DNA of 64,000 bases, from the NCBI RefSeq assembly GCF_054482595.1, contig NZ_CM137008.1. One strand, given 5' to 3'. A program made the position numbers and the translations under genes. Within the stretch, counting starts at the first letter, position 1, and each line of letters begins with the position of its first letter. Positions 1 through 3,250 of this stretch are shown one piece after another. Below the pieces are notes generated by a model. It was not told where the DNA came from and made no database searches. It saw only the letters and a program-made list of their open reading frames with translations.

Positions 1-284
1 GTCTTTGTCATTCTCGTCTCCTGGCGCTAGCGCAATAGGCTCATGCTGCCAGTGGATCATATCGTCGCTGGTAGCATGTCCCCAGTGCATTGGCCCCCAG
101 TGTTCGCTCATCGGGTGATGTTGATAAAACGCGTGATAACGATCGTTAAACCAGATCAGGCCGTTTGGATCGTTCATCCACCCGGCAGGAGGCGCGAGGT
201 GAAAATGGGGATAGAAAGTGTTACCCCGGTGCTCATGAAGTTTTGCTAGTGCGTTTTGCGCTGCATGCAATCGAGATTGCGTCA
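1..284 (-). CDS. cscA: Sucrose-6-phosphate hydrolase (GH32 invertase), N-terminal part; gene continues beyond the window start
   Basis: Minus-strand translation from ATG at 284 reads [46 protein letters not shown]..., containing the GH32 WMNDPNG motif. Divergent from cscK. Confidence 0.85.
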
Positions 285-318
285 TTTTAATCATCCTGGT
301 TAAGCAAATTTGGTGAAT

Positions 319-331
319 TGTTAACGTTAAC
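319..331. promoter_or_regulatory. Putative LacI-family (CscR) operator, palindromic TGTTAACGTTAAC, copy 1
   Basis: Palindrome with CG core in the cscA–cscK divergent intergenic region; identical copy 64 bp downstream. Confidence 0.4.
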
Positions 332-382
332 TTTTATAAAAATAAAGTCCCTTACTTTCATAAATGCGATGAATATCACAAA

Positions 383-395
383 TGTTAACGTTAAC
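383..395. promoter_or_regulatory. Putative LacI-family (CscR) operator, palindromic TGTTAACGTTAAC, copy 2
   Basis: Identical 13-bp palindrome repeated in the same intergenic region; TGTGA CRP-like half-site nearby (about 406–410). Confidence 0.4.
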
Positions 396-500
396 TATGA
401 CATTTTGTGATCGAATATGCATGTTTTAGTAAATCCATGACGATTTTGCGAAAAAGAGGTTTATCACTATGCGTAAGTCAGATGAATTTAAGGGAAAAAA

Positions 501-1415
501 ATGTCAGCCAAAGTATGGGTTTTAGGGGATGCGGTAGTAGATCTCTTGCCAGAATCAGACGGGCGCCTACTGCCTTGTCCTGGCGGCGCGCCAGCTAACG
601 TTGCGGTGGGAATCGCCAGATTAGGCGGAATAAGTGGGTTTATAGGTCGGGTCGGTGATGATCCTTTTGGTGCATTAATGCAAAGAACGCTGCTAACTGA
701 GGGAGTCGATATCACGTATCTGAAGCAAGATGAATGGCACCGGACATCCACGGTGCTTGTCGATCTGAACGATCAAGGGGAACGTTCATTTACGTTTATG
801 GTCCGCCCCAGTGCCGATCTTTTTTTAGAGACGACAGACTTGCCCTGCTGGCGACATGGCGAATGGTTACATCTCTGTTCAATTGCGTTGTCTGCCGAGC
901 CTTCGCGTACCAGCGCATTTACTGCGATGACGGCGATCCGGCATGCCGGAGGTTTTGTCAGCTTCGATCCCAATATTCGTGAAGATCTATGGCAAGACGA
1001 GCATTTGCTCCGCTTGTGTTTGCGGCAGGCGCTACAACTGGCGGATGTCGTCAAGCTCTCGGAAGAAGAATGGCGACTAATCAGTGGAAAAACACAGAAC
1101 GATCGGGATATATGCGCCATGGCAAAAGAGTATGAGATCGCCATGCTGTTGGTGACTAAAGGTGCAGAAGGGGTGGTGGTCTGTTATCGAGGACAAGTTC
1201 ACCATTTTGCTGGAATGTCTGTGAATTGTGTCGATAGCACGGGGGCGGGAGATGCGTTCGTTGCCGGGTTACTCACAGGTCTGTCCTCTACGGGATTATC
1301 TACAGATGAGAGAGAAATGCGACGAATTATCGATCTCGCTCAACGTTGCGGAGCGCTTGCAGTAACGGCGAAAGGGGCAATGACAGCGCTGCCATGTCGA
1401 CAAGAACTGGAATAG
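501..1415 (+). CDS. cscK: Fructokinase (PfkB/ribokinase family)
   Basis: 304-aa ORF MSAKVWVLGDAVVDLL... with C-terminal GAGDAF motif of the ribokinase family; sits between cscA and cscB. Confidence 0.9.
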   Translation: MSAKVWVLGDAVVDLLPESDGRLLPCPGGAPANVAVGIARLGGISGFIGRVGDDPFGALMQRTLLTEGVDITYLKQDEWHRTSTVLVDLNDQGERSFTFMVRPSADLFLETTDLPCWRHGEWLHLCSIALSAEPSRTSAFTAMTAIRHAGGFVSFDPNIREDLWQDEHLLRLCLRQALQLADVVKLSEEEWRLISGKTQNDRDICAMAKEYEIAMLLVTKGAEGVVVCYRGQVHHFAGMSVNCVDSTGAGDAFVAGLLTGLSSTGLSTDEREMRRIIDLAQRCGALAVTAKGAMTALPCRQELE

Positions 1416-1486
1416 TGAGAAGTAAACGGCGAAGTCGCTCTTATCTCTAAATAGGACGTGAATTTTTTAACGACAGGCAGGTAATT

Positions 1487-2734
1487 ATGGCACTGAATAT
1501 TCCATTCAGAAATGCGTACTATCGTTTTGCATCCAGTTACTCATTTCTCTTTTTTATTTCCTGGTCGCTGTGGTGGTCGTTATACGCTATTTGGCTGAAA
1601 GGACATCTAGGGTTGACAGGGACGGAATTAGGTACACTTTATTCGGTCAACCAGTTTACCAGCATTCTATTTATGATGTTCTACGGCATCGTTCAGGATA
1701 AACTCGGTCTGAAGAAACCGCTCATCTGGTGTATGAGTTTCATCCTGGTCTTGACCGGACCGTTTATGATTTACGTTTATGAACCGTTACTGCAAAGCAA
1801 TTTTTCTGTAGGTCTAATTCTGGGTGCGCTCTTTTTTGGCCTGGGGTATCTGGCGGGATGCGGTTTGCTTGACAGCTTCACCGAAAAAATGGCGCGAAAT
1901 TTTCATTTCGAATATGGAACAGCGCGCGCCTGGGGATCTTTTGGCTATGCTATTGGCGCGTTCTTTGCCGGCATATTCTTTAGTATCAGTCCCCATATCA
2001 ACTTCTGGTTGGTCTCGCTATTTGGCGCTGTATTTATGATGATCAACATGTGTTTTAAAGATAAGGATCACCAGTGCGTAGCGGCGGATGCGGGAGGGGT
2101 AAAAAAAGAGGATTTTATCGCAGTTTTCAAGGATCGAAACTTCTGGGTTTTCGTCATATTTATTGTGGGGACGTGGTCTTTCTATAACATTTTTGATCAA
2201 CAACTTTTTCCTGTCTTTTATGCAGGTTTATTCGAATCACACGATGTAGGAACGCGCCTGTATGGTTATCTCAACTCATTCCAGGTGGTACTCGAAGCGC
2301 TGTGCATGGCGATTATTCCTTTCTTTGTGAATCGGGTAGGGCCAAAAAATGCATTACTTATCGGTGTTGTGATTATGGCGTTGCGTATCCTTTCCTGCGC
2401 GCTGTTCGTTAACCCCTGGATTATTTCATTAGTGAAGCTGTTACATGCCATTGAGGTTCCACTTTGTGTCATATCCGTCTTCAAATACAGCGTGGCAAAC
2501 TTTGATAAGCGCCTGTCGTCGACGATCTTTCTGATTGGTTTTCAAATTGCCAGTTCGCTTGGGATTGTGCTGCTTTCAACGCCGACTGGGATACTCTTTG
2601 ACCAGGCAGGCTACCAGACAGTTTTCTTCGCAATTTCGGGTATTGTCTGCCTGATGTTGCTATTTGGCATTTTCTTCCTGAGTAAAAAACGCGAGCAAAT
2701 AGTTATGGAAACGCCTGTACCTTCAGCAATATAG
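1487..2734 (+). CDS. cscB: Sucrose:H+ symporter (MFS, oligosaccharide:H+ symporter family)
   Basis: 415-aa hydrophobic ORF MALNIPFRNAYYRFASSYSFLFFISWSLWWSLY..., LacY-like; immediately downstream of cscK. Confidence 0.9.
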   Translation: MALNIPFRNAYYRFASSYSFLFFISWSLWWSLYAIWLKGHLGLTGTELGTLYSVNQFTSILFMMFYGIVQDKLGLKKPLIWCMSFILVLTGPFMIYVYEPLLQSNFSVGLILGALFFGLGYLAGCGLLDSFTEKMARNFHFEYGTARAWGSFGYAIGAFFAGIFFSISPHINFWLVSLFGAVFMMINMCFKDKDHQCVAADAGGVKKEDFIAVFKDRNFWVFVIFIVGTWSFYNIFDQQLFPVFYAGLFESHDVGTRLYGYLNSFQVVLEALCMAIIPFFVNRVGPKNALLIGVVIMALRILSCALFVNPWIISLVKLLHAIEVPLCVISVFKYSVANFDKRLSSTIFLIGFQIASSLGIVLLSTPTGILFDQAGYQTVFFAISGIVCLMLLFGIFFLSKKREQIVMETPVPSAI

Positions 2735-2813
2735 ACGTAAACTTTTTCCGGTTGTTGTCGATATCTCCATATCCCTCAACCGGAAAATAATAATAGTAAA
2801 ATGCTTAGCCCTG

Positions 2814-2966
2814 CTAATAATCGCCTAATCCAAACACCTCATTCATGTTCTGGTACAGTCGCTCAAATGTACTCCGGATACACGGTTCGCTGATTTCCAG
2901 GACATTGTCGTCATTCAGCGACCTGTCCCGTGTATCACGGGCCTGCGAATTCATCAAGGAATGCAT
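2814..2966 (-). other. Unannotated short coding-like frame (about 50 aa from an internal ATG; open frame extends to 3050); possible remnant of a disrupted gene
   Basis: Hand translation of the minus strand gives ...ILHSAMHSLMNSQARDTRDRSLNDDNVLEISEPCIRSTFERLYQNMNEVFGLGDY*; below the 60-aa ORF-track cutoff. Confidence 0.2.
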
Positions 2967-3175
2967 TGCGGAGTGAAGTATCGAGTCACGCCATATTTCG
3001 CGATCAGGATTCTGTGTGATGGTTACATCGCCCGGCCCAGGGCTGTTTAGTCATCAGCGCTTTCTGACAGTGCTGAGATTTCAACCTGTTGCAGTAAAAA
3101 TGAGTAGATATAAGGTAAGTGTGCTGCCAAACCTATCTTTTACGGGGTGAAGGTAGATTTCGTTTGAAGGGTATC

Positions 3176-3250
3176 TGGTGTCCCCTGCAGGAATCGAACC
3201 TGCAATTAGCCCTTAGGAGGGGCTCGTTATATCCATTTAACTAAGAGGAC
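3176..3250 (-). tRNA. argW: tRNA-Arg (anticodon CCU)
   Basis: Reverse complement reads GTCCTCTTAGTTAAATGGATATAACGAGCCCCTCCTAAGGGCTAATTGCAGGTTCGATTCCTGCAGGGGACACCA: 75 nt, CCU anticodon in loop, TTCGATTCC T-arm, encoded CCA end. Confidence 0.95.

Follow-up and report, generated by a model that had tools for sequence, protein, structure and literature searches.

The csc sucrose regulon between argW and a truncated dsdX in Escherichia coli: how it works and how it may have arrived

What is the sucrose-catabolism module that lies against the 3′ end of the tRNA gene argW in this chromosome, and how did it come to be there? We analysed a 64,000-nt stretch of DNA (the window), which aligns to E. coli XH990 with a single mismatch across the 64 kb. 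We are highly confident that the locus is the chromosomal non-PTS sucrose catabolism (csc) regulon in its usual place, the argW-dsdA 'hot spot'; the history of its arrival is inferred. The presence of csc beside argW is real and already known, and it is ordinary, since about half of the complete E. coli genomes carry the arrangement.

Reading the window from its start, the 5′ part of cscA on the minus strand is followed by cscK, cscB, a spacer and the 3′ end of argW at 3176, which faces cscB (Table 1). The tRNA end lies 441 bp from the cscB stop codon, in agreement with a preliminary description made from the sequence alone, which had given about 440 bp. In the annotation of XH990 the order is argW, spacer, cscB, cscK, cscA, cscR, dsdX stump and dsdA, so that cscR, then a 218-nt dsdX stump, then dsdA are met leftward of the window. 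No prophage separates csc from argW at this locus.

Table 1. Features at the csc-argW end of the window (window coordinates)
Feature	Position	Strand	Basis or remark
cscA, 5′ part; GH32 sucrose hydrolase/invertase, cytoplasmic; residues 1-95 of 477	1..285	-	Translation, TIGR01322
Divergent cscA / cscKB control region	286..500		Two palindromes and a CRP-like site
cscK; PfkB-family fructokinase, 304 aa, intact	501..1415	+	NF006957
cscB; sucrose:H+ symporter, oligosaccharide:H+ symporter MFS family, 415 aa, intact	1487..2734	+	TIGR00882
Inverted repeat, 11-bp arms, 22-nt loop, directly after the cscB stop codon	2744..2787		Repeat search
Decaying non-coding spacer, csc cassette to argW, about 373 bp	2803..3175		Seen only together with csc
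Internal DUF4942-family gene fragment, residues 76-151 of 281, both ends truncated	2823..3050	-	tblastn, blastn, RefSeq
argW, tRNA-Arg(CCU)	3176..3250	-	ARAGORN; Rfam RF00005, 63.4 bits

All four csc genes are full length, lack internal stops and are 97-100% identical to other E. coli copies; the fourth, cscR, which lies just left of the window and was read in XH990, encodes a LacI-family repressor of 331 aa. The cscA gene is divergent from cscKB; read on the minus strand, it begins at position 285 with its start codon and continues past the left window edge (ORF listing and translation). The 95 CscA residues inside the window include the GH32 motif WMNDPNG. This fragment matches TIGR01322 with an E value of 1e-27, the full gene from XH990 scores 477.5 bits (cut-off 356.4), and full-length CscA aligns with PDB 7vco at 2e-174. 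CscK reaches 505.7 bits against the NF006957 fructokinase equivalog (cut-off 450) and matches the PDB fructokinase 5ey7 at 7.5e-95, while CscB, free of stop codons, reaches 592.8 bits against the TIGR00882 oligosaccharide MFS transporter model (cut-off 220), with LacY structures aligning to its residues 11-399 at 1e-63. These NCBIfam and PDB matches, with family scores above their cut-offs, confirm that the preliminary description had named cscA, cscK and cscB correctly and in the right order.

As the literature has established for the csc regulon, CscB imports sucrose together with a proton, CscA splits it by hydrolysis into glucose and fructose in the cytoplasm, and CscK phosphorylates the latter. 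Sucrose catabolism by this locus is predicted from the intact genes; despite intact genes, csc-positive, scr-negative isolates grow slowly on sucrose or sometimes not at all (PMC11251922).

Two perfect copies of a 12-bp palindrome, GTTAACGTTAAC, lie in the control region at 320-331 and 384-395 and are putative CscR operators. Only 0.11 matches with at most one mismatch would be expected in the whole window. The repeat search recovers the pair as a 17-nt direct repeat, 64 bp apart. A CRP-like site, TGTGATATTCATCGCA, occupies 365-380; nothing else in the window fits the CRP-like pattern. Two operators and a CRP site correspond to the description of Jahreis 2002, as relayed in PMC11251922. By the published account of the regulon, the LacI-family repressor CscR would bind the two GTTAACGTTAAC operators in the divergent promoter region of cscA and cscKB, and the CRP site would add catabolite control. 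A simple promoter and terminator scan of the control region gave nothing useful.

In the form shared with other species, the csc cassette has its right end at the inverted repeat after cscB. The repeat is conserved in an alignment (A1), and homology stops at 2790-2802 in Citrobacter amalonaticus, at 2787 in Escherichia SCPM-O-B-8794 and at 2767 in Escherichia sp. MOD1-EC7003. The repeat is a putative terminator that was not called by the simple terminator scan.

To what extent is this arrangement particular to one strain? Counting genomes that hold at least 80% of window positions 1-3400 in one place, we find it in 2,639 of 5,426 complete E. coli genomes (about 49%), and all csc-positive genomes sampled have the same two junctions. 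The module, which had been described as strain-specific accessory content, is thus accessory and far from universal, but it is not strain-specific. According to published work, nearly all members of phylogroups B1, D and E carry it (PMC11251922). The allele in the window is a minority sequence variant, with only 150 genomes at least 99% identical over positions 1-3400, and the same architecture recurs where identity falls to 94-95% and, in one Escherichia lineage, to about 90%. Matches to 'plasmids' were set aside, being replicons of 0.36-4.9 Mb wrongly labelled as plasmids and short GH32 matches in Rhizobium.

Beyond E. coli the cassette has other neighbours. Citrobacter amalonaticus carries the same cscRAKB cassette, about 5.0 kb long and at 80-82% nucleotide identity, whose ends are no more than about 60 bp away from its outermost genes. 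The flanking genes there are yjfF and fbp, an MCP-like gene is a neighbour, the 10 kb around cscB contain no tRNA, and the DUF4942 relic is absent. C. freundii has a rearranged Cf_csc (PMC11251922). Escherichia sp. MOD1-EC7003 has lpxP, not a dsdX stump, next to the cscR side of the cassette; outside E. coli proper there is therefore at least one further left junction, a point against the history proposed below.

Alignment against K-12 and csc-positive genomes placed csc between argW and the dsdX stump. Homology with K-12 ends inside dsdX (L001 9617), 2,382 bp left of the window start, where the other boundary had correctly been expected to lie beyond the window, and resumes exactly at the argW 3′ end, window position 3176 being the last argW base. 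The K-12 MG1655 order is argW, CPS-53, pawZ, dsdC, dsdX, dsdA; its annotation also upholds the preliminary statement that CPS-53 sits at argW in K-12. With homology breaking at these two points, the foreign segment from argW to the dsdX stump measures 5,558 bp and therefore replaces dsdC and most of dsdX. Among the csc-negative genomes sampled, every one in which this part of dsdX is still present breaks at the same base. That csc occupies the argW hot spot in place of dsdC and part of dsdX has been described before (PMC11251922, PMC3032704, PMC4366372).

The spacer between the cassette and argW is probably what remains of an older element. It is entire in 2,623 genomes, close to the number of csc carriers, and is homologous, but with two internal deletions, in the Escherichia lineage of about 90% identity; nothing in it resembles the K-12 sequence downstream of pawZ in the order given above, and no ORF within it exceeds 50 aa. 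The annotated 50-aa ORF at 2814-2966, which RefSeq labels DUF4942, is the tail of the DUF4942 fragment and matches no NCBIfam model. By tblastn, the DUF4942 protein of Nissle 1917 matches the fragment at 54% identity over 76 aa (E 3e-19), and by blastn window positions 2831-3032 match full-length DUF4942 genes at 74-78% identity in 1,867 genomes. A frame-shifted extension of the match to residues 38-65 was weak (E 0.15) and was not counted. Full-length DUF4942 copies sit in CP4-like islands, in one of which the gene follows cbeA/cbtA, and the fragment is oriented away from argW, the direction expected for an island of this type. The relic is a small detail that we did not find mentioned in the later csc papers that cite Jahreis 2002 and Moritz and Welch 2006.

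We propose a single old event in which argW and dsdX came to flank a foreign segment of about 5.56 kb, while dsdC and the first 1,120 nt of dsdX were lost. The incoming DNA would have comprised the cscRAKB cassette of 5.0 kb, bordered towards argW by the 0.37-kb relic and towards dsdX by 130-190 bp of unassigned sequence. The allele would later have spread by descent and by homologous recombination through conserved flanks, which would explain the identical two junctions in all csc-positive genomes. A single origin is supported by the 2,657 genomes that share the dsdX′-cscR junction, by the common break base of the sampled csc-negative genomes, by the 2,623-2,639 genomes that share the spacer and cscB side, and by the recurrence of the architecture in the divergent copies. 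As to the source, a CP4-like island may once have occupied argW, a suggestion drawn from the DUF4942 fragment that adjoins argW and points away from it; the csc cassette would have joined the distal part of this island, which would later have been deleted almost wholly. That the spacer is the last remnant of such an island is a reading we put forward tentatively, at somewhat below even chances. Against this island history, the closest full-length E. coli DUF4942 genes are only 74-78% identical to the fragment, and we found no genome with an intact island joined to csc or with a complete island at argW. Later, CPS-53-like and P22-like prophages would have entered argW in many csc-positive strains and pushed csc away from the tRNA.

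Insertion at a classic tRNA integration site, as the preliminary description had it, would make csc the cargo of an integrase-mediated island, site-specific in the argW 3′ end and with its distal att beyond the window start. Part of that picture stands: the point where divergence from K-12 starts is precisely the 3′ end of the tRNA, several elements are proven to attach at argW, and the DUF4942 fragment of CP4-like type adjoins the tRNA in the expected orientation. The right-hand break at the exact tRNA end could also reflect that every element here starts there. Between argW and dsdA in XH990 there is no integrase, excisionase or other recombinase. The direct repeat of the argW 3′ end anticipated at the distal boundary was not there: searches with the last 15-30 nt, allowing up to 2-4 mismatches, gave no second copy of 15 nt or more, with at most 2 mismatches, anywhere in the surrounding 27.4 kb, and the repeat search of the window gave no argW 3′-end repeat. 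The far end falls inside the truncated dsdX without an att repeat, so the event is a replacement of dsdC and dsdX′ and not an att-bounded insertion. The Citrobacter amalonaticus cassette has its own tRNA-free site, and GC content is unremarkable (48.2% in the csc cassette against 50.8% in the window; 47.5% in the spacer relic and 42.6% in the dsdA-evgS flank), the composition profile showing no step and no deviation from the host. We therefore regard site-specific integration of csc as unlikely.

The 3′-terminal 15-23 nt of argW (3176-3190/3198) are the attachment core of CPS-53-like and P22-like prophages; the CPS-53 feature of K-12 begins 15 nt inside argW and ends at pawZ. In genomes with a prophage between csc and argW, window sequence from 3176 to 3190, 3195 or 3198 stays beside the spacer, and the spacer lies directly against argW in only 1,470 genomes. 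A 10-17-nt match beyond the tRNA end in some csc-negative genomes was discarded, as it agreed with the integrase-bearing element of AVS0456 at only 7 of 10 positions, which is chance level.

Might temperate phages that integrate at argW have moved csc, as cargo or by specialised transduction? Window positions 1-3175 are complete in four GenBank 'phage genome' records at 98.3-98.7% identity, and four coliphage genomes with csc have been mentioned (PMC11251922). The one of these four records that we inspected, ON470589, spans cscA, a P22-like prophage, argW and the host gene yfdC; it takes in host sequence to the left and to the right of the prophage, and the record is therefore an over-extended set of prophage coordinates. 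In O157:H7, moreover, csc lies outside the att copy, and the matches in the 5,426 genomes are all chromosomal. Carriage by phage is accordingly very improbable. Equally improbable is that csc is ancestral at the site, with dsdCXA derived and csc-negative strains having lost csc: the arrangement is indeed old, being present in the 94-95% copies and the more divergent Escherichia lineage, but csc-positive genomes hold a 3′ dsdX stump fused to foreign DNA, which shows that intact dsdX came first, and the stump is further decayed in that lineage.

The locus shows no difference of substance from the csc regulon known in the E. coli strains EC3132, W and O157:H7. It has the same four genes in the same order and orientation, lies likewise between argW and truncated dsdX, and has, as they do, a divergent promoter region in which a CRP site accompanies two palindromic operators of 12 bp (Bockmann 1992, Jahreis 2002, Moritz and Welch 2006, as relayed in PMC11251922, PMC3032704 and PMC4366372). 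Its proteins are 98.7-100% identical to those of the O157:H7 genome (CscK 98.7%, CscB 99.8%). CPS-53 (KpLE1) and P22-like prophages use the same tRNA 3′ end as alternative or additional occupants; they carry an intS integrase, a torI excisionase and a 15-23-nt att duplication (pawZ), whereas the csc segment has none of these. CP4-like islands (CP4-44 / PAI type) carry yeeR, antirestriction genes, cbeA-cbtA and DUF4942, of which the spacer shares the DUF4942 fragment and its orientation. With 76 codons surviving, at 54% amino acid identity to the Nissle copy, and no other island gene, what is left is a relic, no longer an island.

The strain from which the window comes carries csc and has neither dsdC nor an intact dsdX. 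The locus adds no new biology, and the DUF4942 relic and the non-tRNA site in Citrobacter only refine the story of the cassette's arrival. If the tentative island reading is true, the widespread csc/dsd polymorphism in E. coli would go back to one event mediated by an island that then decayed almost completely. The csc genes are used in biotechnology, in E. coli W. Niche-linked gene exchange in E. coli has a textbook case in the alternative of csc or dsdCXA at argW, a trade-off between sucrose use and D-serine tolerance that has been linked to differences between EHEC and UPEC (PMC4366372).

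The sucrose genes at the left edge of the window form a real, correctly identified, and previously known locus. Over 64 kb, a single mismatch separates the window from the RefSeq record of E. coli XH990 (NZ_CP019359.1, 1,516,939-1,580,938); it lies at 27693, within mnmC. Our feature reading of window 1-3400 agrees with the preliminary description in coordinates and distances. Full-length CscA, taken from XH990, matches the sucrose-6-phosphate hydrolase/invertase subfamily (477.5 bits; cut-off 356.4) and PDB 7vco (2e-174). CscK matches the NCBIfam fructokinase equivalog (505.7 bits; cut-off 450), and CscB matches both the oligosaccharide MFS transporter subfamily (592.8 bits; cut-off 220) and LacY structures (1e-63). 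All four csc proteins, CscR included, are full length, with 97-100% identity to the copies in three other E. coli.

Features of the csc-argW region, in window coordinates
Feature	Position	Strand	Remarks
cscA	start codon 285, off left window end	-	95 residues in window, including WMNDPNG
cscA/cscK divergent control region			215 bp
cscK	501-1415	+	
cscB	1487-2734	+	
cscB-argW spacer			441 bp
argW, tRNA-Arg(CCU)	3176-3250	-	3' end toward cscB
yfdC, then mlaA	beyond argW		

In the control region, the palindrome GTTAACGTTAAC occurs twice without mismatch, at 320-331 and 384-395 (64 bp apart), where only 0.11 matches at no more than one mismatch are expected by chance in the whole window; there is also one CRP-like site (365-380). 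The two operators and the CRP site are those that PMC11251922 credits to Jahreis et al. 2002. Transport, hydrolysis, phosphorylation, and CscR repression are established in the literature, as is a link between csc and lost D-serine use (PMC3032704, PMC4366372, PMC11251922). The identity and mechanism of the locus are very probably those of the published csc regulon.

Gene order in XH990 is evgS, evgA, emrK, emrY, dsdA, dsdX stump, cscR, cscA, cscK, cscB, DUF4942 ORF, argW, yfdC, mlaA. K-12 has yfdC, argW, CPS-53 (10.2 kb, with intS and torI), pawZ, dsdC, dsdX, dsdA, so CPS-53 does sit at argW in K-12, as initially stated. BLAST comparison of the two regions places the end of homology within dsdX, of which 218 nt of the 3' end remain, and its exact restart at the last base of argW. 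These two junctions enclose a non-K-12 segment of 5,558 bp (window -2382 to 3175), which, with K-12 minus its prophage as reference, replaces 2,368 bp that contain dsdC together with the first 1,120 nt of dsdX. We note that emrK carries an annotated frameshift in XH990 (5246-6408 of L001, the XH990 region extending left of the window; ~6.6 kb before the window begins) and is truncated by ISEc8 in O157:H7 Z1813; efflux genes beside the csc/dsd locus are decaying too in some lineages.

Among 5,426 complete E. coli genomes, 2,639 carry 80% or more of window 1-3400 at a single location, 2,657 the dsdX-stump/cscR junction, and 2,623 the whole spacer; the spacer directly abuts argW, as here, in 1,470. 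Other csc-positive genomes have an argW-integrated element between csc and the tRNA, such as the P22-like prophage remnant of O157:H7 or CPS-53-like elements, with a 15-23-nt att copy beside the spacer. The csc-positive genomes sampled share a single pair of junctions, and in all sampled csc-negative genomes that retain the relevant part of dsdX, the break base is the same as in K-12. Matches to the window in these genomes are all chromosomal; 'plasmid' matches were rejected as large, mislabelled replicons. PMC11251922 gives a csc frequency of 35-37% among isolates; by phylogroup, the module is universal in D and E, close to universal in B1, and rare in B2, and it is missing from A and F. The module, initially described as strain-specific accessory content, is accessory but not strain-specific, being an allele of about half of sequenced strains.

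ON470589.1 (L008), the one 'phage' record examined, was deposited as the complete genome of 'Escherichia phage vB_EcoP-611R6'. Host genes lie at its two ends (positions 1-4300 and 44842-45921), one bearing cscA, cscK, and cscB and the opposite one argW and yfdC. Because the record spans cscA to yfdC, host DNA is included, and we rejected it as a csc-bearing phage in favor of a prophage coordinate set. What was deposited is an argW-integrated P22-like prophage with over-extended borders, and this probably explains the 'four coliphage genomes with csc' of PMC11251922.

A single CscB scan of species-representative genomes recovered the cassette in two Citrobacter amalonaticus-group genomes, at 80-82% nucleotide identity over L001 9808-14802 (~40 bp before cscR to ~60 bp past cscB). 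Its flanks there are yjfF on one side and an MCP-like gene, then fbp, mpl, and yjgA, on the other, with no tRNA found within 10 kb of cscB and no DUF4942 similarity at these loci. In these C. amalonaticus loci (L013, L017), the cassette occupies ~6320-11318, yjfF belongs to a galactofuranose ABC transporter, and the adjoining 370-aa ORF matches methyl-accepting chemotaxis proteins in their C-terminal signalling part alone. In Escherichia sp. MOD1-EC7003, lpxP adjoins the cscR side. The right end of the cassette proper therefore lies near window 2790-2802, immediately past an inverted repeat with 11-bp arms (2744-2787), and the cassette has no intrinsic tRNA linkage.

Within the spacer, window 2831-3032 shows 74-78% identity to full-length DUF4942 genes located elsewhere in 1,867 genomes. 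Translated window 3050-2823 aligns with the Nissle 1917 DUF4942 protein (281 aa) at residues 76-151 (54% identity, E 3e-19), which makes the fragment an internal piece lacking both gene ends. In Nissle, a CP4-like island carries the complete gene after cbeA/cbtA, with transcription leading away from the integrase side of the island; the window fragment is likewise directed away from argW. The spacer is old: the divergent Escherichia SCPM-O-B-8794 (~90% identity here) shares the arrangement cscB, inverted repeat, spacer, att copy, with two additional internal spacer deletions and a more eroded dsdX stump.

Elsewhere in the window, a low-GC (about 32-37%) yfdF-like ORF (5700-6731, minus strand, 343 aa) differs from K-12 YfdF by a ~60-aa internal duplication and in its C-terminus. 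Strains AVS0456 and 21KM1392 lack it between mlaA and fadL, which makes it a second small variable region of the window. The dedD-cvpA interval (38976-39228, plus strand) holds three tandem Rfam naRNA4 matches (RF02564, REP-type repeats; 73-80 bits) at ~91 bp spacing.

The original interpretation of the locus is thus partly supported. We found no recombinase gene between argW and dsdA, and no second copy of the argW 3' end, proposed as a direct repeat at the distal boundary, in the 27.4 kb examined; classic tRNA integration made at best an indirect, historical contribution. We propose that a CP4-like island formerly occupied argW, of which the DUF4942 fragment would be a relic, and that one ancient replacement event created the arrangement, which would later have been propagated both vertically and through homologous recombination via its flanks. 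In E. coli, the csc module is a lineage-level accessory allele.
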